Of a stretch of DNA of 64,000 nt, positions 1,770 to 64,000 are shown piece after piece. The DNA comes from Eubacteriales bacterium (lineage in GTDB: Bacteria > Bacillota > Clostridia > Oscillospirales > CAG-272). Numbering within the stretch: the stretch's first letter is position 1; each line of letters starts with the position of its first letter. The notes under the pieces are model-generated. The model had not been told where the DNA came from, did no database searches, and was given only the letters and a program-made list of their open reading frames with translations. The DNA lies in NCBI GenBank assembly GCA_051867895.1, contig JBJDZH010000005.1:103487-167486 (forward strand), written 5' to 3'. A program made the translations under genes and the position numbers.

Positions 1770-2335
1770 GAGAAACGCAAAGGGAAACGCAAAGGGAAAC
1801 GCAAGGGGGGCGCCTTTTGAAAAAGGCGTCCCCCTTGACCCCCCGCGAAAACTTTCGGGCAAAAACAGGGGTATCGTACAGGCTAAGGTGTATGGTACCA
1901 TGGATCAGTATGAAAGTTTCTGAGGGGTACGGGGGACTCTGCTGCGGGGGAGAGGACCATCTCAGACGCCGAAGTTCCTCTCCCCCGCATCCCTCTCTCC
2001 TTGGCTGAGGGAACGGTTTCTCATGCGTCGCTCCATCAAAAACACAAGGAGCGCGAGCGCGAACGTGTTTTTCGGGAGGGGCGTGCAAGGTGAATTCTGA
2101 CGATTCCGGCTGCACGCTGCCGCGCTGCACGGCATCCGGAGCGATAGCGAGCGGATTTCGCTGTGCTTTGACGGGGATTCAGTGTGAAAGTTTAAGGGGG
2201 TGTGGACGACATTGCGCTCCGCGCAAGTCGGCGAGGTTGCGCAAAGCGCAACCTCGCGGGAGTCTTATTCATAAGGTTCCCCCACGGCGTTCCCCCGCAT
2301 CGTTCTCCCGCCCCGCGTCCCCTGCGCCACGTCCA
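1770..2335 (-). repeat. Mosaic intergenic repeat cluster 1: Z-A-B-degenerate P-B', then a reverse-oriented core G/F/E/D/C/B', then Q and Z'
   Basis: Three 12-bp units GGGAAACGCAAA at 1776-1803. Hairpin A at 1802-1837 (caaggggggcgccttttgaaaaaggcgtcccccttg). 45-bp hairpin H1 at 1944-1988. Module D (aacacaaggagcgcgagcgcgaacgtgttttt) at 2040-2072. Module Q double hairpin (gacattgcgctccgcgcaagtc / gcgaggttgcgcaaagcgcaacctcgc) at ~2205-2258. All modules recur elsewhere in the window. Confidence 0.9.
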
Positions 2336-2345
2336 CCCAGTCCCC

Positions 2346-2374
2346 TTGCAAAACGGTGCAAAGGCTGATATAAT
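2346..2374 (+). promoter_or_regulatory. Sigma-A type promoter for the 2407 gene
   Basis: TTGCAA (2346-2351), 17-nt spacer, TATAAT (2369-2374), about 30 nt upstream of the ATG. Confidence 0.5.
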
Positions 2375-2406
2375 GAAAGAAAAAGCGCAAGAAAGGCGGA
2401 TGAGTC

Positions 2407-3117
2407 ATGGAACAGATATACACGATCCCGGTAAACGAAGCGTTTGAGGCGTCGGCGGCGGACGCGTCGCTCGGCTGCCCGTTCTGCCGGCTGTACAATA
2501 AACTGGAGGGAGACGAGCTGGAGCTGATTCTCGGCGCGTCGATGATGGAGCCGGACGTCCGCATCCGGACAAACGAGCTGGGCTTCTGCCGCGATCATTT
2601 CGCCATGATGCTCCGCCGCCCGAAGCGGCTGCCGCTGGCGCTGATTCTGGAGAGCCACCTCGCCGAGCAGAAAAAGAACATCGGCGCGTCCGCCGCATTC
2701 GTGGGACATGCCGGCGAGAACGCCGCAAAAAAATTCACAACGCTCTCCCAATCCTGCTACGTCTGCTCGCGCATCGAGTACAACTTCGTGCGCATGCAGG
2801 AAACTGCCGCGCTCCTGTGGGAGCAGGACCCCGACTTCCGCAAAAAAACGGAGGCTCAGCCGTTTTTCTGCCTGCCGCATTTCGCCGGCCTCGTCTCCGC
2901 CGCCAGAGAACGCATGAGCCGCCGCACCTTCGCCGATTTCTATAAATCCGTCTCCGCGCGCGAGAACGAATACATGGAAAAGCTGAACGCCGACGTGAGT
3001 TGGTTCGTCAAGAAATTCGACTACCGCTACGACGCGGAGCCGTGGGGCGACGCGAAAGACGCCCCCGAACGCGCAATCACTTTCCTCTCCGGCAAGCTCC
3101 ACGAGGAGGAAACGTAA
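2407..3117 (+). CDS. Cysteine-rich conserved hypothetical protein (two CxxC pairs; resembles the DUF6062 family as I recall it)
   Basis: 236-aa ORF with CPFC and CYVC motifs, non-repetitive composition, its own promoter and a strong terminator. The family assignment is from memory, not a search. Confidence 0.6.
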   Translation: MEQIYTIPVNEAFEASAADASLGCPFCRLYNKLEGDELELILGASMMEPDVRIRTNELGFCRDHFAMMLRRPKRLPLALILESHLAEQKKNIGASAAFVGHAGENAAKKFTTLSQSCYVCSRIEYNFVRMQETAALLWEQDPDFRKKTEAQPFFCLPHFAGLVSAARERMSRRTFADFYKSVSARENEYMEKLNADVSWFVKKFDYRYDAEPWGDAKDAPERAITFLSGKLHEEET

Positions 3118-3161
3118 AGAAAAAGAGGATCCCGTACCGCTGCACGGGATCCTCTTTTTTT
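3118..3161. terminator. Bidirectional rho-independent terminator
   Basis: aaagaaaaa-GAGGATCCCGT-accgctgc-ACGGGATCCTC-ttttttt. An 11-bp GC-rich stem flanked by an A-run and a T-run, lying between the convergent genes ending at 3117 (+) and 3239 (-). Confidence 0.8.
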
Positions 3162-3238
3162 CAGGAAATTTTCTGAAAGACGCGCGCCTTTATGCACGTG
3201 CGTCCGACATAACACCGGAATGGGATATGTCCCCCCGG

Positions 3239-5326
3239 TCAGTCCTCCACCAAAACGCAGAAGGTTCTCGGAGCAACCGTGACTCTGCCGTCCGAGGTCT
3301 CCGTTTCGTCCGTTCCCGGACGGTATACGGTAAACGCCTTGCTGCCGCCGTCAAGGGTGAAGATCACGTCCAGCGTTTTCGACGAATCCTGATTTGCCGC
3401 GACCACGGCCCGCTTTCCGTTTTCTTTGTTTACAAACATCGAGTAGATGAACTCACAGTTTTCCCCTGCGACCTCCGCATGTACGCCGACCGTATGGCGG
3501 AAAACGCCGTTCCAGATGTAATCCTTCAGCTTCATGCGGACTGCCTGCGCCTCAAGAACCGCCTTTTTGGTCAGCGGAACGTCGTCGGGAGTTCCCTTGA
3601 AGTTATAGGGCTCATAGTTCATCGCGTAGCCGTATGTAATGCACTGATTGACCATTTCGCGATCGTCGAAGCCGACGAGACAGGTCGCGATATACAGATC
3701 CGGGTTCATGAATTTCCAGATGGGCGCATGTCCCCAGTTATCCGAGCGGATGTAGTTGCCGGGATAGTACTGGTTGAGCACGTCGAGCGGTCCCTCGCCC
3801 GTCATAAAGAATTCCTCGCCGCACTTGGCGGTCGCTTCGCGCCGGAATTCCTCCGCCAGTTTTACCGACCCGACATGAATGCAGTACCCAGGACGGTGTC
3901 CGTGATTTTTGTCGAAGCAGAGCATCATGGGGTTTGCAAGCTCATCGTACAGAATCCCGCTCGGTTTGAGGTCGAGAATTTTATCGAATTCGCGCAGCGC
4001 GATTTTCCGATAGTCCTCCGAGAGGTGGCAGAGTCCCGCGCCTGAGCGGCGGCTCCCGCCGGATACATTCTGAAGCGTCGTCTGGTATGAATATCCGCCG
4101 AAATAGACGGGATTCCCGAAGAAGTCCTTCATGGTGAGAGGGAGAAGCTCTTCTTTGTATTCGGGCGTGCTGCTGTCCCCCCATTTAAATTTGCACATCA
4201 AAAGGACGTGTATGCCCATCGCTTCGATTTCGGCAATAGCGTCCTTCAGTTCCTGACGTGTGCCGAGCCTCGGGTCGGTATCCTGATAGGGCTCGTCGCC
4301 GTCCTGACCTCCGCGTGCCCATCCGATGAGCTGGAGCACCTTTACACCGCTTTTTTTCGCTTCGCGCATGATAGCGGGCAGCTCGGTGTATCTGTGACGG
4401 CAGCATCCCTCGGGGGAATTGATGTGCAGCGTCATCCAGCAGTCCGCGTCGTCGATCCATCTCGGGCACTTGGAGGAACGGAACCATGTTTTTCTCCAGT
4501 TCATGTAGGGCTGGATCCCCTCGTGCCAGTCTCCTTCGTAGAATTGCAGCGCAATGGGCGTGAGCTTCAGGGTTTCCCCGGGCTGGATAAACGGGAGCTG
4601 GCTCACGCTGACGGAATAGCCTGCCGGAACGCCCGGAATATCGCCGTCGCGCACAACCCGGTGGTGCATATTATCAAGGTAGCCGGGCTTATATTCCATC
4701 AAAAATTCAACAAATTCAGGTTCATACCGGTGAGCGCCCACGTAAAGTCCCTGCTTTTTTCCGGTTATGAGCATAAACGGTGCGGAAACGTCGGGGGAAG
4801 GATAGTATTTTCTCCTGGTAGGGTGGTCGGTCCCCCAATAATCCGAGTTTCCGATGCCGTTGTTTCCAAGATAAAACTGATAGATACCGCCCTGGAAGTG
4901 CATGGTCTGACACAGAAGAGCATCCTCGCCTTCGGGAGCCGCAACGCCGCCGAAGCACGGGTAACGGAATTCTTCAACAATATAAGGCGAATGATTGACG
5001 ACGGTGGCGCTGCACAGAATCAACTCGCCGTTCAGGCGGACTTCAATCTCCGCCGAAATATCCATCTCTCCGCTCCAGTTGCAGAAGATACGGTCATATT
5101 TCAGTGTGACAGTTTCCGCGCCTTTCACAATCCCGCTGAGCCGCTGGTTTTCGCTGAGCGCGAGGTTATTGCGGTGCTCTTCGACCGGAACAAGCATGGT
5201 CAGTCCCAGCGCGAGCGCCGGCTGACGGATCAGCGCGTATCCGGTGCGGCAGTTGGTCAGCTCGACGATGGCACCCGTTGTTTCGTCAAATCCGATCTTC
5301 ACGGAAGCATTTGACAGTTCGTACAT
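3239..5326 (-). CDS. Large uncharacterised cytoplasmic protein, possibly a glycoside-hydrolase-like TIM-barrel enzyme
   Basis: 695-aa ORF with non-repetitive, enzyme-like composition (W/Y/H/D-rich blocks such as GWARGGQDGDEPYQDTDPRLG and FDKNHGHRPGYC). The opposite-strand ORFs are Arg/Ala-rich shadows. Function is a weak guess. Confidence 0.45.
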   Translation of the reverse strand: MYELSNASVKIGFDETTGAIVELTNCRTGYALIRQPALALGLTMLVPVEEHRNNLALSENQRLSGIVKGAETVTLKYDRIFCNWSGEMDISAEIEVRLNGELILCSATVVNHSPYIVEEFRYPCFGGVAAPEGEDALLCQTMHFQGGIYQFYLGNNGIGNSDYWGTDHPTRRKYYPSPDVSAPFMLITGKKQGLYVGAHRYEPEFVEFLMEYKPGYLDNMHHRVVRDGDIPGVPAGYSVSVSQLPFIQPGETLKLTPIALQFYEGDWHEGIQPYMNWRKTWFRSSKCPRWIDDADCWMTLHINSPEGCCRHRYTELPAIMREAKKSGVKVLQLIGWARGGQDGDEPYQDTDPRLGTRQELKDAIAEIEAMGIHVLLMCKFKWGDSSTPEYKEELLPLTMKDFFGNPVYFGGYSYQTTLQNVSGGSRRSGAGLCHLSEDYRKIALREFDKILDLKPSGILYDELANPMMLCFDKNHGHRPGYCIHVGSVKLAEEFRREATAKCGEEFFMTGEGPLDVLNQYYPGNYIRSDNWGHAPIWKFMNPDLYIATCLVGFDDREMVNQCITYGYAMNYEPYNFKGTPDDVPLTKKAVLEAQAVRMKLKDYIWNGVFRHTVGVHAEVAGENCEFIYSMFVNKENGKRAVVAANQDSSKTLDVIFTLDGGSKAFTVYRPGTDETETSDGRVTVAPRTFCVLVED

Positions 5327-5528
5327 TCTTTTTTCCTCCTGAATTATGCAAAGATGCTGTTTCCTGGAGAGAAAATTAGGTGCTTAAAGGAAACGCAAAA
5401 AAATATGAAAACGAAACGTCCGCGCAGCGGATCGTCCATATCAAGCGCGCACGCTTCGCTCCAAACATATGCTCGCGCCGGCGCGCCGCCAGCGTTTTGG
5501 GGCAAAAAACCAACGTATAAGAGCTTTG

Positions 5529-5567
5529 GAAAAAGGACCGGGGAAAGATGCAAAAAGTTTTCCCCGG
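5529..5567 (-). terminator. Terminator-like hairpin downstream of trxA (solo A-type module)
   Basis: The reverse strand reads CCGGGGAAAActttttgcatcTTTCCCCGG followed by tccttttt. The stem and loop resemble the hairpin-A repeat module. Confidence 0.5.
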
Positions 5568-5579
5568 TGTATCCACAGC

Positions 5580-5891
5580 TCAGACGCCGAGCATGGCGAG
5601 AACGGCTTCCTTGTCGCGCACGCCGACGCTCTGCGCGGAAACCTTTCCGCCCTTGAAAACGAGCAGCGTCGGAATGCTCATGATGCCGAACTGCTGCGCC
5701 AGCTCCGCCTCGTCGTCCACGTTAACCTTGCCGACCTTCGCCGACGATACCTCCCCGGCGATCTCGTCCACGATGGGCGACATCATGCGGCACGGTCCGC
5801 ACCAGCTCGCCCAGAAATCCACCAGCACCGGCACGGGCGAAGCGAGCACCTCGGACGCGAAATTGTCTTTTGTAAGCGTGATAACAGCCAT
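5580..5891 (-). CDS. trxA: Thioredoxin
   Basis: 103 aa starting MAVITLTKDNF, with the WCGPC active site. GGAGA SD upstream of ATG 5891. The track ORF 5580..6077 over-extends the N-terminus. Confidence 0.93.
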   Translation of the reverse strand: MAVITLTKDNFASEVLASPVPVLVDFWASWCGPCRMMSPIVDEIAGEVSSAKVGKVNVDDEAELAQQFGIMSIPTLLVFKGGKVSAQSVGVRDKEAVLAMLGV

Positions 5892-5998
5892 ATTGGTCTC
5901 CTTTCCTGCTTTCGCAGATGCCGCCGGTACGGCGGCGTTTTTTAGTTTTTTGTTTTTTAGATAGTATGGAGCGGCGCGCCGCCGTTTATCCGCGCGCG

Positions 5999-6979
5999 TC
6001 AGAGCGGGCGGACGCTGATCTCTCCGGAGGAAAGCGCAGCACTCGCCCCGTCCGGCGTGCGCACGACCAGGCGGCACTCGCCGTCCACGCCGACCGCCTC
6101 CGCCTCATAGGCGGAAGCGCCGTCCGCCGAGATCACGCGCACGCGCCGCCCGAGCACAAAGCAGCGGCGGCGGTATTCGTCGATATACGTTCCGTCCGCC
6201 AGGGAATCGTACAGCGAAAAGAAATGCGACAGGATGAGAGTGAGCAGCCGCGCGCGCGCGTCAGAGCGGCGCTCGGGCAGAAGCGCCCCCGCGATACCGG
6301 CAAGCTCCGGCGGAAAACCGCCCGCCGGTTCCGTCACGTTCACGCCGATGCCGAGCACGGCGTATTCGAGCTGACCGCTCTCGGGCGTAAAGGCGGCTTC
6401 GGTCAGGATGCCGCAGACCTTCCGTTCGCGGATGTAGACGTCGTTGACCCACTTGATGGACGCCGTGCAGGAAGTAAGCTCCTCCGCGGCGCGGCAGACG
6501 GCGACGGCGGCGGCGGTCGTGATGCGGATCGCCTGTTCCGCGGGGATAGCGGGGCGCAGCACGATGCTGAGATACAGCCCTGTGCCGGGCGGAGAAAGAA
6601 ACGCGCGTCCGCGGCGTCCGCGCCCGGCGGTCTGCATTCCGGCGGCGATGACCGTGCCGTGCGGCGCGCCGGCTGCCGCCGCAGCGCGCGCGTCGTCGTT
6701 GGTAGAGGAAGTCTCCGCCTCGATCCGGATCTGGAGAGAGGACAGTGCAGGAGGAAGATACCGGCGGACGGTCTCCTCTGTCAGCACATCCGAAGTTGGC
6801 AGCAGCGTATATCCGCGGCGCGTCGACGCGTCGATGGCGTAGCCCTCGTCCGTCAGCGAACGGATCGCCTTCCAGACAGCCGCCCGCGTCACGCCGAGCG
6901 CCGCCGCGATCTCCTCGCCGGATATCCATTCGCCGCGCCGCGCTTCCAGCAGCGCCAGCGCTTCGTCTCGTTTCGACAT
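5999..6979 (-). CDS. birA: Bifunctional biotin-[acetyl-CoA-carboxylase] ligase / biotin operon repressor
   Basis: 326 aa from MSKRDEALALLE. N-terminal HTH, GRGRRGR biotin-ligase motif and KWVNDV motif. AGGAGGAAC SD before ATG 6979. Confidence 0.9.
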   Translation of the reverse strand: MSKRDEALALLEARRGEWISGEEIAAALGVTRAAVWKAIRSLTDEGYAIDASTRRGYTLLPTSDVLTEETVRRYLPPALSSLQIRIEAETSSTNDDARAAAAAGAPHGTVIAAGMQTAGRGRRGRAFLSPPGTGLYLSIVLRPAIPAEQAIRITTAAAVAVCRAAEELTSCTASIKWVNDVYIRERKVCGILTEAAFTPESGQLEYAVLGIGVNVTEPAGGFPPELAGIAGALLPERRSDARARLLTLILSHFFSLYDSLADGTYIDEYRRRCFVLGRRVRVISADGASAYEAEAVGVDGECRLVVRTPDGASAALSSGEISVRPL

Positions 6980-7014
6980 GGGTTCCTCCTGAAATATACA
7001 GAAGTAAGGGAATA

Positions 7015-7560
7015 CGCCGGGGGAAACTTTTTGAAACAAGTTTCCCCCATGCCCCTTTCAAAAACTTTCATACTGAATACACAATACTGTGCAGCGGGAT
7101 TTTCTTCGTGCGGTACTCTGTTTTTGCTCTGAGAGTTTTGGGGGAACATCTCAGTTATGGAGAAAGACTCATTCACCTCGCATTGCGGGGGAGAGGACCA
7201 TCTCAAGCGCCTCGCATTGCGGGGGAAAGGACCATCTCAGACGCCGAAGTTCCTCTCCCCCGCAACCCTCTCTCCTTGGCTTCCGGAGGGAGGGTGCGGC
7301 ATTTCGCTTTCCACATCAAAAAACACAGGGAGCGCGGGCGCGAACGTGTTTTTCGGGATGGGCGGGCAGAGGGAATTCTAACGGTTTCCGCTGCACTCTG
7401 TCGCACCGCACGGCATCCGGAGGGATAGCGGACAGGTTCTACTGCGCTTTGACGGGCATTCAGTTTGAAAGCTCTTGAGGGGGTGCGGGGGAACTTCTTG
7501 CAGAAGTTCCCCTGCATCGTTCTCCCCACGCCCCTTGCCTCCGCATCCCCTGCTGTTTGC
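7015..7560 (-). repeat. Mosaic repeat cluster 2: A-B-degenerate P-B', then a reverse-oriented core with 2 tail units, then A and Z'
   Basis: Hairpin A at ~7019-7049 and 7485-7515. Tail units at 7146-7218. H1 at 7219-7263. Modules E/D/C at 7264-7460. The cluster fills the whole birA-amidohydrolase spacer. Confidence 0.9.
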
Positions 7561-7615: not shown

Positions 7616-8437
7616 TTATAGGAGATTTTTCCCGCCGAGCAGCGCGCGGGCGTTGCCGGCGAGAATCGCCTCCCGCTCCGCTTCCGACAGCGGCAGCGAC
7701 CGCACGAAACGCACGCCTTCCGCCGGATCGCCCCACGGGCAGTCGGAGGCGAAAAGGATCCGGCTCACCCCGTGCGCGCGGATGATGTCCATAACCTCCT
7801 CCGGCTTCGCATAATTGAAGATGAAGGAAAGATCAAAATACACGTTCCGTCCCGCCAGATACCGCACCACGTCGGGAAACTGCCTGTTTCCGCCCCCGTG
7901 CGCAAACACGATCCGCGCCGTCTCCGGCCCGCCGTCCGCCTCCACCGCGTCCAGAAACCGCGCGGCGCGCTCCGGCGAACAGCGGACCGTGTCCGGAAAA
8001 CCGTCGTCCACGCCCGCGTGCGTGACGACGATCAGCCCAAGCCGCAGCGCCTGTCGCGCAATGCGCACGTAGCGCGCGTCATCAATGTACACCCCTTGGT
8101 AATCCGGATGGATCTTGATGCCGCGCAGTCCCATCGCCTGAATTTCGGCAAGATGCCCCTCTATATCCCCGTCGTCCGGGTGGATGCCGCCAAAGGAGAG
8201 CAGTCCCGGCGTCCGGCACAGCTCCGCCGCGAACGCGTTCACCGAACGGAACTGCGCGGGGCGCGTCACCACGGGCAATACGACGCCAAGCGAGACGCCG
8301 CTGTCCCGCAGCCTGCGCACGAGCGCTCCGGCGGTGCCGTCGGTACACGGTACGGCGGCTGCTTTTTCAGCGAGGTAAGGGATCGTCTTTGCGGCAAGCG
8401 CGTCGGGAAACGCGTGCGTGTGAAAATCAATTATCAT
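7616..8437 (-). CDS. Metal-dependent amidohydrolase-family protein (TIM-barrel hydrolase)
   Basis: 273 aa from MIIDFHTHAFPD (HxH metal motif), ending ...ASDCPWGDP. The track ORF 7616..10420 (934 aa) is this gene fused to an antisense shadow of the ligase gene. Confidence 0.8.
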   Translation of the reverse strand: MIIDFHTHAFPDALAAKTIPYLAEKAAAVPCTDGTAGALVRRLRDSGVSLGVVLPVVTRPAQFRSVNAFAAELCRTPGLLSFGGIHPDDGDIEGHLAEIQAMGLRGIKIHPDYQGVYIDDARYVRIARQALRLGLIVVTHAGVDDGFPDTVRCSPERAARFLDAVEADGGPETARIVFAHGGGNRQFPDVVRYLAGRNVYFDLSFIFNYAKPEEVMDIIRAHGVSRILFASDCPWGDPAEGVRFVRSLPLSEAEREAILAGNARALLGGKNLL

Positions 8438-8533
8438 AAAATACCGGCTCCGTATTGCTGATTCGGGTATATTGTACCCGCTGCGCCGCCGGATTGCAAG
8501 AGTGAATCTGTAAAAAAACGAGGAGAATCCAAG

Positions 8534-10171
8534 ATGCCGATCACCGACTTTCTGGAGCGCAACGCGCGGCTGTATCCGCACGACGTCGCTCTGACCGAAA
8601 TCACGCCGCAGCACCAGCCGGACAGGCAGGTGACGTGGCGCGAGGCGAATCTGATCGAAACGGCGGAGGGTGAGGAATACCGCCGCGAGATCACGTGGCG
8701 CGCCTTCGACGAGGACGCAAACCGCTTTGCAAACCTGCTTTTCACGCGCGGCGTGAAGCGGGGCGACAAGGTGGCGATCCTGCTCATGAACTGTCTGGAG
8801 TGGCTGCCGGTCTATTTCGGCATCCTCAAGACGGGCGCGCTCGCCGTGCCGATGAACTACCGCTACGCCGCGGACGAGATCCTCTACTGCGCCCGTCTGG
8901 CGGACTGCACGCGGATCGTGTTCGGTCCGGAATTCACCGGGCGTATCGACGAAATCCGCGGCGAGCTCGGCGTGCGCGACTATTTCTTTGTCGGGACGCG
9001 GGCGCAGACGCCGGACTTCGCGGACAACTACGCGGAGATGATCGGCTGCTGCTCGCCGGTGCCGCCGCCGGTGGAAATATCGGACGAGGATGACGCGGCG
9101 ATCTATTTTTCCTCCGGTACGACCGGATTTCCGAAGGCGATCCTGCACAGCCACGCGGCGCTCGTCTCCTCCTGCAGAACGGAGCAGGCGCACCACGGAC
9201 AGACGCGGAACGACGTGTTTCTGTGCATTCCGCCCTTGTACCACACGGGAGCAAAGATGCACTGGTTCGGCAGCCTGCTCTCCGCGTCCCGCGCGGTGCT
9301 TCTGCGCGGCGTGAAGCCGGAATGGATCCTGCAATGCGCGTCGGAGGAACGGGCGACGATTGTATGGCTGCTCGTGCCGTGGGCGCAGGACATTCTGGAC
9401 GCCATCGAGCGGGGTGAGGTAACGCTCTCGGACTACAGGCTGGACGCGTGGCGCCTGATGCACATCGGCGCGCAGCCGGTGCCGCCAAGCCTGATCCGGC
9501 GCTGGAAAGAGGTGTTCCCGCACCATCAGTACGACACGAACTACGGTCTGTCGGAATCGATCGGACCGGGCTGCGTGCATCTGGGCGTGGAGAACATCGA
9601 TCACGTCGGCGCGATCGGCAAAGCGGGCTATGGCTGGCGGACGAAGATCGTGGACGAGCATTTTGCGGACGTGCCGCGCGGCGAGGTCGGCGAGCTGGCG
9701 GTCGCGGGGCCGGGCGTGATGCGCTGCTACTATAAAAATCCGGAAGCGACGGCGGAGGTGCTGCGCGGCGAGTGGCTCCTGACGGGGGACATGGCGCGCG
9801 AGGATGAGGACGGCTTCATCTATCTGGTGGACCGCAAAAAGGACGTAATCATCACAGGCGGTGAAAACCTGTACCCGGTGCAGATTGAGGATTTCCTGCG
9901 GGCGCATCCGAAGGTGAAGGATGTGGCGGTGATCGGCCTGCCGGACGCGCGGCTCGGCGAGATCGCGGCAGCCGTGATCGAAGCAAAGGAAGGCGTGACG
10001 CTGACGGAAGAGGAAATCGACGAGTTCTGCCTCGGACTGCCGCGCTACAAACGCCCGCGCAAGCTGATCTTTGCGCATGTGCCGCGCAATCCTACCGGTA
10101 AGATCGAAAAGCCGCGGCTGCGGGAGATGTACTGCGGCGTGCGGCTCGTGGAAGCGGAAACGACAAAATAA
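8534..10171 (+). CDS. AMP-dependent acyl-CoA synthetase/ligase
   Basis: 545 aa with the AMP-binding signature SSGTTGFPKAILHSH and C-terminal GKIEKPRLRE. GAGGAGAA SD upstream. Confidence 0.88.
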   Translation: MPITDFLERNARLYPHDVALTEITPQHQPDRQVTWREANLIETAEGEEYRREITWRAFDEDANRFANLLFTRGVKRGDKVAILLMNCLEWLPVYFGILKTGALAVPMNYRYAADEILYCARLADCTRIVFGPEFTGRIDEIRGELGVRDYFFVGTRAQTPDFADNYAEMIGCCSPVPPPVEISDEDDAAIYFSSGTTGFPKAILHSHAALVSSCRTEQAHHGQTRNDVFLCIPPLYHTGAKMHWFGSLLSASRAVLLRGVKPEWILQCASEERATIVWLLVPWAQDILDAIERGEVTLSDYRLDAWRLMHIGAQPVPPSLIRRWKEVFPHHQYDTNYGLSESIGPGCVHLGVENIDHVGAIGKAGYGWRTKIVDEHFADVPRGEVGELAVAGPGVMRCYYKNPEATAEVLRGEWLLTGDMAREDEDGFIYLVDRKKDVIITGGENLYPVQIEDFLRAHPKVKDVAVIGLPDARLGEIAAAVIEAKEGVTLTEEEIDEFCLGLPRYKRPRKLIFAHVPRNPTGKIEKPRLREMYCGVRLVEAETTK

Positions 10172-10185
10172 GACGCCGGGAGATA

Positions 10186-10375
10186 CCGGGGAAAACTTTT
10201 TGAAAAAAGTTTTCCCCAAGCCCTTTTCCAAAACCTTCAAACGGAACGCCCGGCGCCGTGCAGCGGAATTTCCGCTGTACAATACCCCTGTTTTTGCCCC
10301 GAAAGTTTTGGGGGCGTGGGGACTTTTCCAGAAAGTCCCCGCATCGTTCCCCCTCCTGCACGGGGACGGGCGGCA
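10186..10375. repeat. Mosaic repeat cluster 3 (A-B-small hairpin-half P-B'-A'-Z'), without a long core
   Basis: Hairpin A at 10188-10217 (ggggaaaactttttgaaaaaagttttcccc). Palindrome cagcggaatttccgctg at 10261-10277. A second A-type hairpin ggggacttttccagaaagtcccc at ~10318-10340. Confidence 0.8.
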
Positions 10376-55959: not shown

Positions 55960-55970
55960 ACCTCCGCAAA

Positions 55971-58946
55971 TCAGTCCAGGTACAGCCGGAGGACGGTGAG
56001 ATTTCCGGCATAGTCCTCGGCGCTGACGTATACGTAGGACGCGCCCTGCGGCAGCGCCGCTTCGATATACGCTTCGTGTACGCCCTCTTCATAGGCGGGC
56101 GACACGCGCACGTCGAGAAGGTATTTTTCTTCCTCGGGCGCGTTCCGGTCCGCCGCCGGATCGGGCAGATACACGCGCAGCTGCCGCAGATAATGGTTGT
56201 CCGTGAAGCGCGCACGCACGGTTTTGTCATCGGCGGAGCATTCCGACGCGCGGGGACGCTCCGTATCGACGAGCAGCGGTACGGTGAGAATCTGCTGTCC
56301 GCCGGAGAAGGAGGTGAACGTCACGCGGACGGAGTACAGTCCGTCCTCCCAGGAGAAGTGGTCGTTCAGTCCGTCGCTGCCGTCCCAGAGCGGGAGCAGC
56401 GCGGGGACGGGCCGTCCGTCCTCCACGGCGGTCTTGAGCAGATCGAATTCGACGTTTTCATATACGAGCTGTCCGTCGGGGGCATAGACCTCGACGGATG
56501 CCTCGGCGATATTGCGATGGGGGAACAGCTCCCAGACGGTGTCGTCCGCGCGCCTGTCCCCGTTCGGGGAGAAGGCGAAGAGTACGGAAAACACGCCGTC
56601 CTCCGTTTCGCCCGCGGTGTCCGTGACGCCGCGCACCGTGCGGAGGATGAGCTGCCCGCCGTAGTAGCTTTCATAGCCGTCCCAGTCCCCGCCGTCGAGC
56701 ATGGGCGCGTCTGCCCAGCGTCCTGCGAAGGCGAGAAACGGAAGGGACGCCGCGTGTTCCCCGTTTTCGTACCGGGCGATGACGAAGCCCTCAAGGTAGA
56801 AGCCGTTCGGGAAGAGCTTGGCGAGCGAGGCGAAGTATTCCGCGTCGGCGGAGAGGGTCAGCGATACCTCCAGCGTGCCGCCCGCAGGTACGGTGCAGAG
56901 GACGCCCGCGTCCGTGACGGAGACGCCCGCGTCCGGCGCCGCGTCGAGCGTGGCGGGCACCGCTTTCGAGGCGCCGGTCGTGTAGAATACGCCGTCGCGC
57001 AGCTCTGTTTCATCAGTCAGCAGAGGAGCCGTGAGCAAAAGCCGCTGCGGCTCGTCCGTTTCGTTCGTCAGCCGGACGGGGAGGCGCAGAACACCCGCGC
57101 ACCGGTCGCCGGGCTGGAAGGAGAACGCGTTCTCCGGCGCGCTCATCACGATGCCGGCGTCCCAGGAGCGGAGCACGCCCGCGCCCTGCGCGCGGGGAGA
57201 AACAGGCAGACCGGATTCATCCGTCAGCACCTCGGCGTATGAGGCGAAGCGGCGGCGCACCTCTCCTGCGCGGCTGCTTGCCGGCAGGGCGGACAGCTCT
57301 TCGCGGTGGAGAGAGATGTAGACTGCCGCCGCGCCGCTGATCTGCGGGGACGCCATGGAGGTGCCGTTCATGACGGCATAGCCGCCGCCAGGCACGGCGG
57401 AAACGACGGAGACGCCGACGGCACAGATGTCCGGCTTCAGGAGGAGATCGGAGACCGGTCCCCAAGACGAGAAGGAGGCGATGCCGCCCGCTGCGGCAGC
57501 AAAGGCGCCGTTTTTGTCGGAGATATGTACGTTGACGCCGTCCCGCGCGGCGAGAAAGGCGCCGTCATGCGCGGCGACGGAGACAGCGGGGATGGCGGGC
57601 GCTTCGCCGATGCTCATCAGAAACGGCTCGCCGTCCGCCGCGTCGTATACGATCACGCCGGCGGCTCCCGCCGCGGCGGCGTTGGCGATCTTTTCGGCAA
57701 AGGAGATCTCGCCGCGCGCGATGAGCGCCAGAGCGTTCTGTGCGTCCGTCTGCGCGAAATCCTCCGCTGTTCCGACGCCCGGCACGACAGCGAGGCGGAA
57801 GCTCTTCCCGCCGAGCACGTCGGCGAACGCGGGCGCGGTGCCCTCGGATGCCTCGTAGGTTTCATCATAGACGATACGCCGCCCGTCCGCATCGAGATAG
57901 CCGGCGTAGACGACGGAGTTTGACGCCGCGCCGACGGAGAAGGCGAAGGGAAGCGCGGCAGGCTCGCTCGGCAGACCGTAGTCCGGGTCAGAGGCGCGCG
58001 CCAGATCGGAGTGGAGCCCCATCGCGCCTGCGCGACCGTCGTTTCCGGCGGCGCACACGACGAGCGCGCCCGCCTCCTCCGCGCGGCGGAGGGCGTTTGC
58101 GAGCTGGCGCATGGAGCAGTATTCGCTTGTATAGGCGAGGGAGCCGAGGCTCAGGTTGATGACGTCCGCGCCGAGACGCACCGCGTCCTCAACAGCGAGG
58201 ATGAGCGCGTGCTCGCGGCACGATTTGCCCGCGTCGTCAAATACCTTCATCAGAGCGAGCTGCGCGCCGGGCGCAGTGCCCATGAGCGCGCCACCCTCCG
58301 CGACGGAGGCGGCGGCAGCTGCGGCGACGTGCGTTCCGTGCGCGGAGCTCCCGCTCACATCCGCGTCGCTGTTCGCGTAATCGTAGGCGAAGGGGATCTT
58401 CGATGAGTGATAGACGGCGCGGATATTCTCGCGTCCCTCGCGGTAGACGGCATAGGTATCCGTGACCGCCTCGCCGAAATTTTCCTCCGTGATCGCGGGG
58501 GAGACGGAAGCAGGCAGAGCGAAGGCGGGATGCTCCGTGTCAAAGCAGGTGTCCAGCACGGCGATCAGCGTTCCTTCGCCCGCGTTTTCCTCCGCGGCGC
58601 GCAGGACGAGGTCGTCCCGGGACAGCTCCGGGGTATCTGCCGCCTGCGCGTCGCCGGAGGGCGCGCAGAAGGAGGCGGAAACGCTGACGTCCGTCACGCC
58701 GGGCAGAGCGCGCAGCGTATCGGCGGCGCGCGCGGCGGAGGCGGCGGGGACGGAGACGGCGGCGGCATCGATCAGGGAATATGTACAGAGCAGGGACGCC
58801 CCCGGGACGGCGGAGAGCAGCTCGGCGGGATCCCGGTCCGTTTCCACGAGAAGGACGGTTTCGCCGTGGGCGGGCGCGGCGGCGGAGACGGCGGGGAGCA
58901 GCAGCGCGAGCGTGAGCACGGCGGCAGCAATGCGGCGCATAAGCAT
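55971..58946 (-). CDS. Secreted S8-family serine peptidase (subtilisin/C5a-peptidase-like, with PA domain)
   Basis: ~991 aa from MLMRRIAAAVLTLALLLPAVSAA. Catalytic motifs VLDTCFDTEHPAF (Asp), SSAHGTHVAA (His), AAGNDG (Asn) and NGTSMASPQISGAAA (Ser). The track start at 58979 is upstream of the signal peptide. Confidence 0.85.
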   Translation of the reverse strand: MLMRRIAAAVLTLALLLPAVSAAAPAHGETVLLVETDRDPAELLSAVPGASLLCTYSLIDAAAVSVPAASAARAADTLRALPGVTDVSVSASFCAPSGDAQAADTPELSRDDLVLRAAEENAGEGTLIAVLDTCFDTEHPAFALPASVSPAITEENFGEAVTDTYAVYREGRENIRAVYHSSKIPFAYDYANSDADVSGSSAHGTHVAAAAAASVAEGGALMGTAPGAQLALMKVFDDAGKSCREHALILAVEDAVRLGADVINLSLGSLAYTSEYCSMRQLANALRRAEEAGALVVCAAGNDGRAGAMGLHSDLARASDPDYGLPSEPAALPFAFSVGAASNSVVYAGYLDADGRRIVYDETYEASEGTAPAFADVLGGKSFRLAVVPGVGTAEDFAQTDAQNALALIARGEISFAEKIANAAAAGAAGVIVYDAADGEPFLMSIGEAPAIPAVSVAAHDGAFLAARDGVNVHISDKNGAFAAAAGGIASFSSWGPVSDLLLKPDICAVGVSVVSAVPGGGYAVMNGTSMASPQISGAAAVYISLHREELSALPASSRAGEVRRRFASYAEVLTDESGLPVSPRAQGAGVLRSWDAGIVMSAPENAFSFQPGDRCAGVLRLPVRLTNETDEPQRLLLTAPLLTDETELRDGVFYTTGASKAVPATLDAAPDAGVSVTDAGVLCTVPAGGTLEVSLTLSADAEYFASLAKLFPNGFYLEGFVIARYENGEHAASLPFLAFAGRWADAPMLDGGDWDGYESYYGGQLILRTVRGVTDTAGETEDGVFSVLFAFSPNGDRRADDTVWELFPHRNIAEASVEVYAPDGQLVYENVEFDLLKTAVEDGRPVPALLPLWDGSDGLNDHFSWEDGLYSVRVTFTSFSGGQQILTVPLLVDTERPRASECSADDKTVRARFTDNHYLRQLRVYLPDPAADRNAPEEEKYLLDVRVSPAYEEGVHEAYIEAALPQGASYVYVSAEDYAGNLTVLRLYLD

Positions 58947-59144
58947 GGTGGAGATCCTTTTTTCGGGCAGAAAAATCATATGCCTACATTATAACGGATA
59001 CGCGTGCCGAAAACAAGGCGTATCCTGTGAACACGCGCCGAAATTATGTGCAAAATTCACGAAACTTCTTGCAAAGGAATCCGCTTTATGGTACACTGAT
59101 TCCGTACACCGAAAATTTTCCTCAGATTATAAAAGGAGCCGCAT

Positions 59145-60399: not shown

Positions 60400-60865
60400 A
60401 CGGGGGACGGATACAAAGGGACGGATACAAAGGGCGGGGAACGCCGTGGGGGAACCTTTTGAATAAGACTCCCGCGAGGTTGCGCTTTGCGCAACCTCGC
60501 CGACTTGCGCGGAGCGCAATGTCGCCCACACCCCCTTAAACTTTCGGACTTTGACACGGTCTAAGCATAGTTAACTCTGACCGCTATCTCTCCGGATTCC
60601 GTGCAGCGCGGCAGAGTGCAGCCGGAATCGTCAGAATTCACTCTGCCCGCCCCGCCCGAAAAACACGTTCGCGCACGCGCTCCTTGTGTTTTTGATGGAG
60701 AACGCAAAACGTCATGCTTCTTCTTTCCCTCAGCCAAGGAGAGAGGGATGCGGGGGAGAGGAACTTCGGCGTCTGAGATGGTCCTCCCCCCCGCAATCGT
60801 GAGGCGGATGAGATGCTCCCCACACCCCCGCGCCACGAGACGGGTGAGACCCCCGCGATAAGGGT
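60400..60865 (+). repeat. Mosaic repeat cluster 14: Z-A-Q-B, then a forward core
   Basis: 14-bp units gggacggatacaaag x2 at 60404-60432. A-type hairpin at ~60447-60475. Q (gcgaggttgcgctttgcgcaacctcgc, then cgacttgcgcggagcgcaatgtcg) at ~60474-60523. H1 at 60750-60794. Tail to ~60865. Confidence 0.9.
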
Positions 60866-60961: not shown

Positions 60962-61822
60962 ATGAAATACATCGATCTCCATACCCACTCCCTGAAGAGC
61001 GACGGCTCGCTCACCCCTGCCGGGGTGGTTTGCGCCGCGAAGGACGCAGGTCTGGCTGCCATCGCCCTCTCCGACCACGATTCCGTCGACGGCGTTGAGG
61101 AAGCCGTCGAGGAAGGACGCCGCCTCGGCGTCGAGGTTATCCCCGCCGTCGAGCTGTCCGCCCAGTCGGACACCGAGCTGCACATCCTCGGCTATTTCAT
61201 CGATATCCACAACAAGACGCTGCGCGAAAAGCTCGCCTACGCCCTGCAGGTGCGGGACGAGCGCGAGGAGGAAACCTGCGAAAAGCTGCGCGAGCTTGGC
61301 TTCGACATCACGATGGACGAGGTCCGCGCCGAGGCAAACGGCAATCCCGTCCTCTGCCGCGCGCATTTCGCCAAGATCATGGTGCGCAAGGGCTACGCCG
61401 AATCGGTGAAGGACGCCTTCGCGCGCTACCTTTCCAGCGGCTGCTACGCCTACTCCAACCGGCAGGCGCTGACCGGTCCGGAGGCGGTCTCCCTTATCCG
61501 CGAGGCGGGCGGCATTCCTGTCGCCGCGCATCTGCACCTCATCCGCCTGCCGGACGGTGAGCTGCGGGAATTCCTTTCGTCGCTGATCCCGTACGGTCTC
61601 GGCGGCGTGGAGGGCTACTACACCGATTACACCCCCGATATGCAGCTGCGCTATCAGCGGATGGCGGCTGAACTGGGACTGACGATCTCCGGCGGCACCG
61701 ACTTCCACGGCGCGAATAAGCCTCACATCACTATCGGTCGTGGGCTGGGGGAACTGCGCATTCCCTATACCGTCCTCGACGGGCTGCGCGAAAAGCACGC
61801 CGCGATGGGGAAAAACTTTTGA
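60962..61822 (+). CDS. PHP-domain phosphoesterase (TrpH/YciV-like)
   Basis: 286 aa. N-terminal IDLHTHSLKSDGS and SDHDSVDG metal motifs. The last 5 codons and the stop lie in an A-type hairpin. Confidence 0.85.
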   Translation: MKYIDLHTHSLKSDGSLTPAGVVCAAKDAGLAAIALSDHDSVDGVEEAVEEGRRLGVEVIPAVELSAQSDTELHILGYFIDIHNKTLREKLAYALQVRDEREEETCEKLRELGFDITMDEVRAEANGNPVLCRAHFAKIMVRKGYAESVKDAFARYLSSGCYAYSNRQALTGPEAVSLIREAGGIPVAAHLHLIRLPDGELREFLSSLIPYGLGGVEGYYTDYTPDMQLRYQRMAAELGLTISGGTDFHGANKPHITIGRGLGELRIPYTVLDGLREKHAAMGKNF

Positions 61823-61870
61823 AAAGGGTTTCTCCATCCCCCTTTCAAAAACGTTTGAAATCGGGGAAAG
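61806..61870. repeat. Solo A-B repeat module overlapping the PHP gene's 3' end
   Basis: ggggaaaaacttttgaaaagggtttctcc, followed by the palindrome tttcaaaaacgtttgaaa. Confidence 0.75.
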
Positions 61871-61938
61871 CCGGCTGCGTCCGGCGCGCAGGAAAACACA
61901 GAGAAAAATTATAATTACATAAAAGGAGCACTCCCATT

Positions 61939-63402
61939 ATGAAAAAAGCTGACATCGGTCTGATCGGTCTTGCGGTCATGGGCGAGAACCTCGTTCTCAA
62001 CATGGAGTCCAAGGGCTTCACCGTTGCGGTATTCAACCGCACCACGGAAAAGGTGACGAATTTCGTCTCCGGCCGCGGCGCAGGCAAAAACATTATCGGA
62101 ACGTACTCGCTTGCGGAACTGGTCGAAGCGGTGGAGAAGCCGCGCAAGATCATGATGATGATTAAGGCGGGCGACGCGGTCGACGCCATGATCGACGCGC
62201 TGCTGCCGCTGCTGGACGACGGCGATATCCTGATCGACGGCGGCAACTCGCATTTCCCGGACACCGCGCGCCGCACGGCGTATGTGGAATCGAAGGGCAA
62301 ACTGTACATCGGTACCGGCGTATCCGGCGGCGAGGAGGGCGCTCTGAACGGTCCGTCCCTGATGCCCGGCGGTTCGCCCGCCGCATGGCCGCATGTGAAG
62401 AATATTCTCCAGTCCATCTGTGCGAAGGTGGAGGACGGTTCGCCCTGCTGCGACTGGGTCGGTGAGAACGGCGCGGGGCATTTTGTGAAGATGGTACACA
62501 ACGGCATCGAGTACGGCGATATGCAGCTGATCTGCGAGGCGTACCATCTGATGAAGAATCTGCTGGGAATGTCGGACGACGAGATGCACGAGGTATTCGC
62601 CGAGTGGATGAAGGGGGATCTGAACAGCTATCTGGTAGAGATCACGCGGGACATTCTGGCGTACAAGGACACGGACGGCGAGCCGATCGTGGAGAAGATT
62701 CTGGACACGGCGGGGCAGAAGGGCACCGGCAAATGGACGGGTATTGCGGCGCTGGACGAGGGCGTGCCGCTGACGCTGATCGGCGAAGCGGTGTTCGCGC
62801 GCTGCCTGTCGGCGATGAAGGAGGAGCGCGTTGCGGCGTCGAAGGTGCTGCCGGGCGAAGCGGAGGCTGCTCCCGCGCTGACGGCGGAGGAGAAGGCAGA
62901 ATGGATCGAGAACATCCGCTGCGCGCTGCTGGCGTCGAAGATCGTTTCCTACGCGCAGGGCTACACGCTGATGCGTGCGGCTGCGAAGACCTACGGCTGG
63001 AATCTGAACTACGGCGGCATTGCGCTGATGTGGCGCGGCGGCTGCATCATCCGTTCCGTATTCCTGGGCAAGATCAAGGACGCTTTCGACAAGAATCCCG
63101 AGCTGACCAACCTGCTTCTCGATCCGTATTTCACCGAGAAGATCGCGTCTCTTCTGCCCGGATGGCGGAAGGTCGTAGCACAGGCGGCGCTGTCCGGCAT
63201 GCCTGTTCCCGCGTTCTCCTCGGCGCTGTCGTACTATGACGGCTATCGCTGCGAGCGGCTCCCCGCGAATCTGCTGCAGGCGCAGCGCGACTATTTCGGC
63301 GCGCACACCTATGAGAGAGTGGACGCCGAGCGCGGCAAGTTCTTCCACACGAACTGGACGGGACACGGCGGAGACACGGCGGCAAGCCAGTACATAGTCT
63401 GA
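61939..63402 (+). CDS. gnd: 6-phosphogluconate dehydrogenase, decarboxylating (NADP+)
   Basis: 487 aa. IGLIGLAVMGENLVLN Rossmann motif. Conserved GAGHFVKMVHNGIEYGDMQLI and YFGAHTYER. Confidence 0.95.
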   Translation: MKKADIGLIGLAVMGENLVLNMESKGFTVAVFNRTTEKVTNFVSGRGAGKNIIGTYSLAELVEAVEKPRKIMMMIKAGDAVDAMIDALLPLLDDGDILIDGGNSHFPDTARRTAYVESKGKLYIGTGVSGGEEGALNGPSLMPGGSPAAWPHVKNILQSICAKVEDGSPCCDWVGENGAGHFVKMVHNGIEYGDMQLICEAYHLMKNLLGMSDDEMHEVFAEWMKGDLNSYLVEITRDILAYKDTDGEPIVEKILDTAGQKGTGKWTGIAALDEGVPLTLIGEAVFARCLSAMKEERVAASKVLPGEAEAAPALTAEEKAEWIENIRCALLASKIVSYAQGYTLMRAAAKTYGWNLNYGGIALMWRGGCIIRSVFLGKIKDAFDKNPELTNLLLDPYFTEKIASLLPGWRKVVAQAALSGMPVPAFSSALSYYDGYRCERLPANLLQAQRDYFGAHTYERVDAERGKFFHTNWTGHGGDTAASQYIV

Positions 63403-64000
63403 AAAAGACGCGGACGCAGGGGGTGAGCGCGCAGGGGAACGATGTGGGGAAGCCTTTTGAAAAAGGCTCCCCCACGCCCCCCGCGAAAACTTTCAACCTG
63501 AATTCCCGCCAAAGCACAGCAAAACCTGCTTGCCATTCCTCCGGATGCCGTGCAGCGCGGCAGAGTGGAGCGAAAATCGTTAGAATTCACTCTGCCCGCT
63601 CCACCCGAAAAACACGTTCGCGCACGCGCTCCTTGTGTTTTTTGAAGGAGGAAAGCGAAGCACCGTGTCCCTTTTCCCCTCGAAGCCAAGGAGAGAGGGG
63701 TGCGGGGGAGAGGAACTTCGGCGTCTGAGATGGTCCTCTCCCCCGCAACGCGAGGCGGACGAGATGAAGACACGGACGCAGGGTGAGCGCGCAGGGGGAA
63801 CGATGTGGAGAAGCCTTTTTCAAAAGGCTCCTGCGAGGTTGCGCTAAGCGCAACCTCGCCGACTTGCGCGGAGCGCAATGTCGCCCACACCCCCTTAAAC
63901 TTTCGGACTTGAATCTCCGCCAAAGCACAGCAAAACCTGCTTGCCATTCCTCCGGATGCCGTAAAGCGGACCGAAGTGCAGCCACACCACCCCCGGTCTC
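63403..64000 (+). repeat. Mosaic repeat cluster 15: a full forward core, then the start of a second copy (Z-A-Q-B-C...) running off the window
   Basis: Hairpin A at 63444-63475. H1 at 63702-63746. Second A at ~63811-63840 and Q at ~63832-63885. Confidence 0.9.

Follow-up and report, generated by a model that had tools for sequence, protein, structure and literature searches.

A hairpin with a covarying, putative third strand at the core of mosaic intergenic repeats in gut Clostridia

Repeats that could fold into intrastrand triplexes are reportedly known from E. coli and other Proteobacteria, with Hoyne and Maher (2000) being named for them alongside Holder et al. (2015). The BoxC or TM_ECO repeats form a triplex in vitro, lie between genes, show no strand bias, occur as inverted doublets, have no link to mobile elements, and are associated with local genomic instability; no function is known for them, and their copies are too uniform for an analysis of covariation (PMC4666352). 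Whether triple-helical DNA forms and matters in bacterial cells is a standing question, which is addressed here by covariation in the E-F unit, a hairpin (F) preceded by a short conserved element (E). The unit belongs to a family of intergenic repeats in a stretch of 64,000 nucleotides (nt), here called the window, from a Eubacteriales bacterium of the Oscillospirales lineage CAG-272 (contig JBJDZH010000005.1, positions 103,487 to 167,486). A first reading of these letters (the original prediction) had described the family as a mosaic of palindromic modules, designated Z, A, B, C, D, E, F, G, P, and Q.

Read 5' to 3' on its purine-rich strand, the unit comprises E (GCCAAGG), a linker (L1) that is a run of 9 to 12 purines and T, a short turn, a purine arm of 12 to 14 nt, a loop, and a pyrimidine arm. 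The loop is conserved as A-CUUCGGC-GUYUGAGAUGG (19 nt), and the F stem of 12 to 14 bp has undergone heavy compensatory change. Among 110 distinct stems, positions 1 to 10 were Watson-Crick paired in 93 to 97% of cases, with GC, AT, CG, and TA pairs as alternatives at most positions. A gap-free alignment of 34 units had 97.7% of its cells paired, and both sides had changed in 11 of 18 pairs; none of 500 shuffles reached that level of pairing, and slid controls were at most 62.5% paired. The 15 copies from the window gave no compensatory pairs in RNAalifold, the copies being too similar. A long-range pairing of module C with E that RNAalifold proposed was dropped, since module C is absent from the other genomes examined.

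The element E stands at a fixed distance from the hairpin in 145 of 154 cases, and in certain "long forms" E is separated from the stem by an additional hairpin, located precisely where the turn is predicted. The standard loop was present in 129 of 137 units, and GCC in E was accompanied by GGC in the loop in 91 units. Where E reads GGCAAGG, the loop always reads CUUCGCC. This was seen in five units of SVTS01, which carry two different stems, and in five metagenome units with four further stems (10 of 10 concordant), the latter coming from an independent sample retrieved with a search pattern that left the swapped bases free. Mixed combinations (GGC with GGC, or GCC with GCC) were not seen among the units examined. 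Covariation thus shows that E pairs with CUUCGGC in the loop, which gives the unit an H-type pseudoknot topology in the order E, linker, 5' arm, loop, 3' arm.

The linker L1 (AG-NNN-GGGG...) is complementary to nothing and instead follows the purine-rich 5' arm in mirror fashion. From the top of the stem it descends to the base, antiparallel to that arm, in a register that places L1 base k opposite stem position k + 1, counted from the loop (offset +1). At this offset 395 of 439 triads (90%) were allowed ones, with G facing G or with A or T facing A, compared with 50 to 60% at eight other offsets, and permuting L1 among 54 units gave 301 ± 8 allowed triads, with a maximum of 329 in 5,000 permutations. 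The independent metagenome set behaved likewise, with 358 of 427 triads allowed against 271 ± 8.7 after permutation (maximum, 304). Across 93 distinct units, a G in the arm was faced in L1 by G 551 times, by A 114 times (69 of these being the invariant first base), by T 19 times, and by C 6 times; an A in the arm was faced by A in 123, T in 99, G in 20, and C in 6 instances; and an interrupting C was faced by T in 33, G in 11, C in 9, and A in 6. A T opposite an inverted C-G pair (T·C-G) belongs to the purine motif. Arm and L1 formed 53 distinct combinations at the three most variable positions, of which 31 were fully consistent with the rules, when 8.3 ± 2.5 were expected by permutation and the maximum in 10,000 was 18. 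Examples are arm AAA with L1 ATT, ATA, or TTT; AAG with ATG or TTG; GCG with GTG; and AGA with AGA, AGT, or TGT.

Together, the G·G-C, A·A-T, and T·A-T triads and the antiparallel course of L1 are the signature of a predicted class I purine-motif (reverse-Hoogsteen) triplex, class I denoting intrastrand triplexes with the third strand on the 5' side (PMC4666352). Because templated synthesis makes direct or inverted repeats and not mirror repeats, this covariation would be hard to explain other than by selection on the folded state. Mirror covariation is also seen between hairpin A and its flank B (score 6.77 compared with 5.22 ± 0.23, with 0 of 5,000 permutations as high), less cleanly than in E-F. 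The word "palindromic" in the original prediction is incomplete, since E-F and, less cleanly, A-B carry a third, mirror-covarying segment. A hairpin plus a mirror flank is possibly a general principle behind the "mosaic" repeats of gut Clostridia.

A scan of species-representative genomes for exact matches to an F loop pattern returned at least 108 stretches in at least 35 assemblies. Among the matches listed, all were from uncultured gut Clostridia, Oscillospiraceae, "Eubacteriales," or "Candidatus Flemingiibacterium" metagenome-assembled genomes (MAGs), and the hosts were human, horse, roe deer, goat, and sheep. The listed carriers include a closed 1.78-Mb chromosome, CP091718.1, and many of the matches lie at contig ends. 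No listed genome is of the window's own species, the best identity being 78 to 81% in gyrA and gyrB. When the listed loci were searched by nhmmer with a profile of the window composite, all 151 hits were limited to E-F and none extended over A to D, and in 120 metagenome loci 115 hits were again to E-F only. A-B-like and Z-like modules recur, by eye, in CP091718 and other assemblies; modules C and D did not turn up in any other genome examined, and a scan of JGI metagenomes for D gave no hits. The Z-A-B-C-D-E-F-G "core" of the original prediction, which exists as such in the window, is a lineage-specific composite of about 330 nt built around much older modules.

The stems differ in how they are distributed among genomes. 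A single stem recurs in all copies of the window (GCGGGGGAGAGGA) and of CP091718 (CCGGGGGAGAGGA), and the stem is genome-specific in SVTS01 as well; one stem in all copies of a genome indicates recent amplification. In JAFTOI01, CAZDOX01, JBGVJO01, and JAKSPU01, nearly every copy has a different, fully paired stem. Six loci of different assemblies carry E-F immediately 3' of gyrA (L013, 5510 to 5742; L099, 6317 to 6359; L043, 297 to 360; L128; L130; and L205). In L013 and L099 an orthologous unit has been kept between gyrA and a lipoprotein-like gene, with stems that differ at several positions and are paired in both, and the spacer around it has diverged. The original prediction had proposed comparing orthologous spacers for polymorphism and target-site duplications, and such spacers do differ between species in the presence or absence of units; the composites of the window have no consistent target-site duplications.

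Self-BLASTN of the window found 20 repetitive intervals totaling 8,058 bp (12.6%). One of them, 36051 to 36358, is a coding tandem repeat of a jag/khpB-like gene, unrelated to the intergenic family; after its removal, the family amounts to about 7.75 kb (12.1%) in 18 tracts (19 self-BLAST intervals), all of which are intergenic on a gene map based on Pfam and on G+C content at third codon positions (GC3). The earlier sum of about 8.3 kb (about 13%) was thus real and slightly high. With the reference copy listed in Table 1 as the query, nhmmer recovered 15 full-length composites of about 330 nt, 8 on the plus and 7 on the minus strand, together with two solitary E-F units and one copy cut by the window end, which bears out the previous count of at least 15 full and 2 truncated copies. 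All modules are present in the recurring order that had been claimed for them. The core copies are 72 to 92% identical (median, 80%). Across the 15 copies, conservation is 94 to 100% in D and E-F and 62 to 89% in A to C, and the spacer from D to E is essentially unconserved. The unique intact stems per copy, the orthologous pair in L013 and L099, and this unequal conservation within composites argue for a constraint that would act on resident copies and not only on a transposing master.

Several structural variants were observed among the modules. The "G" tail units (33 to 35 nt; 40394 to 40470, 47082 to 47131, and 7165 to 7211) repeat the 3' half of the F unit in tandem, laid out as GCG-TTTGAGATGG-pyrimidine arm-spacer, and look like slippage products that offer alternative 3' arms to a single purine arm. 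Module D (A5-CAC...GTG-T6) resembles a bidirectional terminator. Loci of CP091718.1 (for example, L085 at 6881, L040 at 6151, and L009 at 1759) have a loop variant with a 14-nt palindromic insertion, CCGTCGCAAGCGACGG, whose position seems to coincide with the invariant A·C mismatch of the E:loop helix, as though there were room for a third helix there. In four JAFTOI01 loci (L021, L024, L061, and L098) a second ACTTCGGCG stands directly 5' of E, a conserved CGCGCGGGAGCGCG-AAAAG hairpin follows, and head-to-head doublets flank a hairpin resembling a bidirectional terminator. An A-B module, GGCGGCTTTTTGAAAAAAGCCCCC-TGCA-CCCCGCAAAAACTTTT, lies in G+C-rich DNA of a 4.4-kb "Clostridioides difficile plasmid" from stool (L230; NZ_CP144680.1, 4203 to 4246). 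Because G+C-rich DNA is untypical of C. difficile, NZ_CP144680.1 is probably mis-assigned gut Clostridia DNA.

The explanation that we favor, at slightly better than an even chance, is that these are noncoding intergenic DNA repeats of the BoxC or "potential intrastrand triplex" (PIT) kind, arranged in mosaics like those of bacterial interspersed mosaic elements (BIMEs), with E-F as the functional core. Single-stranded DNA is favored, with moderate confidence, as the molecule that folds. According to PMC4666352, which cites Semerad and Maher, RNA does not form triplexes of the purine motif, and the equivalence of A and T opposite A-T fits the purine motif, mismatches being expected in a pyrimidine motif of the complementary strand. 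The stem mismatches comprise 24 G·T and 18 A·C, with no wobble (G·U) asymmetry. Outside the window, units between tandem genes were co-oriented with them in 27 and anti-oriented in 24 of 51 contexts, others were in 19 convergent and 18 divergent spacers, the downstream gene was co-oriented in 64 cases and anti-oriented in 69, and many units form head-to-head inverted doublets. Because the purine motif is reported not to occur in RNA, because there is no orientation bias, and because there is no excess of G·U, the fold would most likely form in DNA that is single stranded for a time, as in replication, repair, or unwinding driven by transcription. It would probably be the fold itself that is recognized or selected, possibly by way of a structure-specific protein encoded by the host or by the element; alternatively, selection could act through polymerase stalling that leads to template switching and recombination. 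In the window lineage, E-F would have become linked with Z, the A-B foldback, C, and the terminator-like D, and the resulting composite of about 330 nt would then have spread by amplification to most intergenic spacers, and whole copies and half-hairpin tail units would have been duplicated locally in tandem. The mechanism and function of the E-F family are what we infer from these patterns.

A number of points weigh against this explanation. We infer the triplex itself from covariation alone; the triad match lies about 10 to 12 standard deviations above permutation, a score inflated by the phylogenetic relatedness of the copies. The window copies' own triad match is good and imperfect (5 to 9 of 9), and the base before the turn varies freely. 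In vivo footprinting of TM_ECO in E. coli detected no stable triplexes (PMC4666352), and the exclusion of purine-motif triplexes from RNA is in vitro work, cited here secondhand from the same source. No replication-strand bias was found in the window or in 500 kb of CP091718, where a strictly lagging-strand single-stranded DNA mechanism predicts otherwise, and no agent of dispersal was found in the window or in the sampled DNA. Other features would suit an RNA element: the invariant 19-nt loop, its UUCG-like sequence, an E that resembles a Shine-Dalgarno (SD) sequence, and a unit conserved about 50 nt upstream of an orthologous gene. The window copies are, moreover, co-oriented with their tandem neighbors 9:1, or 6:1 when counted by independent loci, which is not significant and may be driven by the terminator-like module D.

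These last features lead to the alternative that survives best, which we nevertheless regard as rather doubtful. E-F would be a structured RNA, either a cis-acting element of untranslated regions or a small RNA, that folds as an H-type pseudoknot with its 5' linker in the major groove of the stem; it might stabilize transcripts against RNase J or 3' exonucleases, or bind a protein or the ribosome through the SD-like E, and the other modules would be hitchhiking terminators and hairpins. The near invariance of loop and E across species is in keeping with such an RNA, as are the pseudoknot given by the E:loop covariation, which is a typical RNA motif, the loop variant that extends the helix with a stable tetraloop hairpin, several units located 50 to 120 nt upstream of a ribosome-binding site and ATG, the retention of one unit upstream of an orthologous gene in two species, the mostly co-oriented window copies, and an RNA fold z-score of -4.2 for a whole copy. 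An RNA does not sit well with the balanced orientations outside the window (27:24, and 64 versus 69 for the downstream gene), with the occupied convergent and divergent spacers and head-to-head doublets, or with stem mismatches that show no surplus of G·U (24) over A·C (18). The third strand, antiparallel to the purine strand and obeying G/A/T rules, is of the purine motif reported not to form with RNA, and there was no Rfam match to the units even at E ≤ 10. Related candidates were tried and rejected. Against a small open reading frame (ORF) following the SD-like E, species differ, by eye, in how the frame stands to the conserved loop, and insertions and deletions in G runs shift it; against a small RNA gene with its promoter in A-B and its terminator in D, the TTGAC varies among copies and the spacing does not fit. 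Readings of the loop as a K-turn, a hammerhead, a GNRA receptor, or an attC-like site did not fit on inspection.

Less likely still is an origin as classical nonautonomous transposons, whether miniature inverted-repeat transposable elements (MITEs), repetitive extragenic palindromic (REP) sequences or REPINs, or derivatives of IS200/IS605, moved by a transposase from another part of the genome that recognizes the F hairpin; the covariation would then reflect only that transposase's requirements. Recognition of a hairpin plus a guide is known from HUH (Y1) transposases, and the high copy number, the homogeneity within genomes (with a genome-specific stem in the window, CP091718, and SVTS01), the breaking of short-read contigs at repeats, the presence-absence differences at orthologous spacers, and the REPIN-like inverted doublets could all be accounted for in this way. 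The composites, however, lack the terminal inverted repeats of a MITE, their end-to-end inverted alignment scoring as a shuffled control does, and have no consistent flanking direct repeat, within the limits that fuzzy element boundaries set on this test. As the original prediction had stated, the window encodes no transposase, integrase, RAYT, or reverse transcriptase, according to Pfam searches of all sizeable ORFs. Its suggestion to look for IS200/IS605 TnpA or RAYT genes further afield drew a blank: tblastn with IS200 TnpA and E. coli RAYT sequences gave a best E value of 0.29 in 781 kb, of which 717 kb surrounded 150 units and the rest was the window.

When ORFs from the loci, and those lying no more than 700 nt from a unit (280 units), were clustered, only ABC transporters, gyrA, and similar genes emerged and no partner gene. 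Viral contigs gave no hit, and plasmids and phages gave no full-length or significant match, the two short marginal hits being the A-B-like stretch in the "C. difficile plasmid" and a chance phage hit. There is no GTAG-type REP and, in the sampled 781 kb, no RAYT that would point to REP or BIME elements. The units that were read by eye, without a pattern search, contain no GTTRRRY core of attC, the window contains no integrase, and E-F units flank housekeeping genes in both orientations. Of the features of IS200/IS605 elements, the sampled DNA had no TnpA (TnpB was not searched), and there was no replichore bias in the window or in 500 kb of CP091718. Finally, the unique intact stems that every copy has in several genomes and the unequal conservation within composites speak of constraint in situ and not of decay after insertion. 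That the repeats are an assembly or chimera artifact confined to this window, a possibility raised in the original prediction for which the unusual repeat density is the only conceivable argument, has practically no standing: a Logan short-read assembly (SRR30616840, locus L109) is 100% identical to window positions 2242 to 7257 and has both ends inside repeat tracts, so that the repeats are genuine multicopy DNA, the copies differ by 8 to 28% and hence are not collapsed or duplicated reads, and the E-F core recurs in at least 35 other assemblies and 120 metagenome contigs.

The preferred reading of E-F as a BoxC/PIT-like DNA repeat has several implications. More tentatively, E-F could be a naturally selected single-stranded DNA fold, made up of hairpin, purine-motif triplex, and loop-flank pseudoknot, with a host-level function at each locus, that is, a genomic DNA "aptamer"; such a fold could serve as a structure-specific protein-binding, replication, or repair signal. 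If true, covariation would have supplied the first evolutionary proof that in living bacteria DNA forms intrastrand triplexes and that these matter. The more than 130 distinct natural variants, whose third strand changes with the duplex by chemical triad rules, offer a testable system for DNA-level structure under selection, with a 61-nt unit, a defined register, and natural compensatory mutants. There is also a practical side. Such repeats break short-read assemblies of abundant uncultured gut Oscillospiraceae, and they occupy promoter, terminator, and oriC-adjacent DNA, which is relevant to MAG quality and annotation.

Table 1. Repeat features of the window and anatomy of one E-F unit (window coordinates)
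Feature	Position	Strand	Location and remarks
Composite copy B-C-D-E-F, Q replacing 5' A	1940-2202	-	PFOR/DUF6062 divergent spacer; E-F 1944-2005; nhmmer, alignment
Repeat tract around copy 1940-2202	1768-2296		Also A-B-P cassette at ~1786-1934
Composite copy	7203-7521	-	Upstream of birA; E-F 7219-7280; self-BLAST, nhmmer
Tract around copy 7203-7521	7006-7553		Extra A-B unit 7007-7068 and tail units
Short A-B-type tract	10178-10352	.	Hairpin A ~10189-10237; AMP-binding/POR-like gene boundary; self-BLAST, nhmmer
A-B / B'-A palindromic tract without C-F	12165-12358	.	Downstream of POR-like gene; self-BLAST, nhmmer
Composite copy, first of tandem pair, D duplicated	18457-18805	+	Downstream of RNase R gene; E-F 18725-18786
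Composite copy, second of tandem pair	18842-19150	+	E-F 19070-19131, the most degenerate in the window (11/13 stem pairs)
Composite copy	20857-21171	+	Between AraC (-) and ROK (-); sole copy anti-oriented to both neighbors
A-B-P-B'-Q cassette	21200-21417		After composite copy 20857-21171
Composite copy	31027-31347	-	dnaA-dnaN spacer, adjoining DnaA-box cluster; E-F 31050-31111
Composite copy	33044-33378	+	dnaA/rpmH divergent spacer, upstream of rpmH promoter (33534-33563); E-F 33297-33358
Solitary E-F unit	37516-37608	+	Just downstream of jag-like gene, directly before composite 37617; E-F 37528-37589
Composite copy	37617-37951	+	Upstream of beta-lactamase-family gene; E-F 37873-37934
Solitary E-F unit	39968-40059	+	Ahead of reference composite; E-F 39979-40040
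Reference composite Z-A-B-C-D-E-F plus tail units	40070-40420	+	Convergent spacer; E-F 40332-40393
A-Q-B-P-B'-Q-A palindromic cassette	40542-40779	.	P 40646-40683, a hairpin resembling a bidirectional terminator
A-B-P-B'-A cassette	43717-43905	.	Adjoins composite copy 44005-44324
Composite copy	44005-44324	-	Between M23 peptidase and solute-binding-protein genes; E-F 44006-44067
A-B-P-B'-A cassette	46849-46975	.	Downstream of AraC gene; P 46865-46902
Composite copy	47134-47433	-	Convergent spacer; E-F 47135-47196
Composite copy, first of tandem pair	49859-50187	-	E-F 49878-49939
Composite copy, second of tandem pair	50209-50561	-	E-F 50220-50281
Composite copy, Q replacing A	60527-60816	+	Tract 60436-60849; E-F 60733-60794
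Single A-B unit	61807-61860	.	Between PHP-domain and 6-phosphogluconate dehydrogenase genes; self-BLAST
Composite copy	63429-63766	+	Downstream of 6-phosphogluconate dehydrogenase gene; E-F 63685-63746
Q module and start of further composite	63795-63983	+	Composite part 63889-63982, cut by window end
E-F core anatomy: whole unit	40332-40393	+	In the reference composite
E-F core anatomy: E	40332-40338	+	GCCAAGG
E-F core anatomy: L1 (putative third strand) and turn	40339-40349	+	AGAGAGGGTTG
E-F core anatomy: purine arm	40350-40361	+	CGGGGGAGAGGA
E-F core anatomy: loop	40362-40380	+	ACTTCGGCGTCTGAGATGG; its CTTCGGC is the predicted partner of E
E-F core anatomy: pyrimidine arm	40381-40393	+	TCCTCTCCCCCGC

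The window has a G+C content of about 60% and a classical origin neighborhood, with rnpA-yidC-jag on the plus strand and dnaA-dnaN-gyrB...gyrA on the minus strand; further genes identified by Pfam encode RNase R, PFOR, BirA, 6-phosphogluconate dehydrogenase, and peptidases. Seven DnaA boxes, two of them perfect (TTATCCACA), lie at 30535 to 30948 in the dnaA-dnaN spacer and mark oriC, and a composite copy directly adjoins them, in line with the density of repeats next to oriC reported earlier. A second cluster, of three TTTTCCACA sites, is found at 47596 to 47651, between a repeat tract and a WG-repeat gene. Relative to oriC (at about 30.7 kb), long runs of genes are head-on, with plus-strand genes to the left (8400 to 20000) and minus-strand genes to the right (40800 to 59000). 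Such an arrangement is unusual in a Firmicute, and rearrangements of repeat-rich DNA may be responsible for it. A 6S/SsrS RNA gene (15925 to 16132, plus strand; 54.7 bits in Rfam) is directly upstream of the RNase R gene, and locus L013 likewise has a 6S gene (4277 to 4484), near its gyrA-linked genes. The jag/khpB-like gene (35465 to 37501) contains an in-frame 45/42-nt tandem repeat at 36047 to 36348, with six units rich in K, P, Q, and A codons.

Rfam searches with the window, single units, and 12 loci, at gathering and at permissive thresholds, returned only the 6S RNA elsewhere and chance miRNA-type hits on units, and full-text literature searches by motif sequence gave nothing relevant. 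With the plasmid, phage, and viral-contig searches, this upholds the claim that the sequences are unrelated to any named repeat family. The resemblance to BIME and BOX elements that the original prediction had drawn holds at the level of modular architecture, and the closest kind lies elsewhere, in the BoxC/PIT repeats discussed last. Like BIMEs, the REP (PU) palindrome mosaics of Enterobacteria, the family consists of intergenic mosaics in which a few hairpin and linker motifs follow a recurring order, with variable tandem units, dense occupation of spacers, and possible cotranscription with neighboring genes. It differs in lacking a REP (PU) sequence or GTAG motif and any RAYT found, in a far longer unit (about 330 nt), in hairpins that carry mirror-covarying third strands, and in having copies in divergent promoter spacers as well, which REPs largely avoid. 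Pneumococcal BOX elements (boxA-boxB(n)-boxC) are likewise modular, intergenic, and without a transposase of their own, and have a variable tandem module, to which the Z 8-mers and the 33- to 35-nt tail units correspond here. BOX is, however, an element of low-GC Streptococcus with no sequence relation to this family, and it folds into one hairpin, made of the A and C arms, that bears no sign of a triplex.

The H-type RNA pseudoknots of telomerase RNA and of the SAM-II and preQ1-II riboswitches resemble E-F in that a 5' flank pairs with the loop and a linker runs along the major groove, forming base triples. Their linkers are pyrimidine rich and parallel to a purine 3' strand (U·A-U Hoogsteen), whereas the E-F linker is purine rich and antiparallel to a purine 5' strand (G·G-C and A/T·A-T), a DNA-type motif; moreover, E-F is not associated with a ligand or gene and lacks an orientation bias.

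The closest described kind is BoxC/PIT/TM_ECO (Holder et al. 2015, PMC4666352). E-F shares with it three consecutive blocks on one strand (reverse-Hoogsteen, purine, and pyrimidine), purine-motif triads (90% of those in register), G-richness, strictly intergenic positions, no strand-orientation bias, some inverted doublets, copy numbers in the tens to hundreds per genome that vary widely between relatives, and no link to transposons, phages, or plasmids. The sequences themselves are unrelated, the TM_ECO pattern CCCTCNCCC-N3-6-GGGNGAGGG-N3-GGGNGAGGG having no match in the window. E-F is of class I, with the third strand at the 5' end, and TM_ECO is of class II; the predicted E-F triplex spans 10 to 13 triads, compared with 9 in TM_ECO. 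In place of a variable loop of 3 to 6 nt, for which no such pseudoknot has been described, E-F has a conserved loop of 19 nt that would pair with the flanking heptamer. Its hosts are gut Clostridia, whereas those of TM_ECO are E. coli and other Proteobacteria, and in the window it is embedded, unlike TM_ECO, in a 330-nt composite. Finally, TM_ECO copies are nearly identical, whereas those of E-F are diverse enough for the covariation of their strands to be read.

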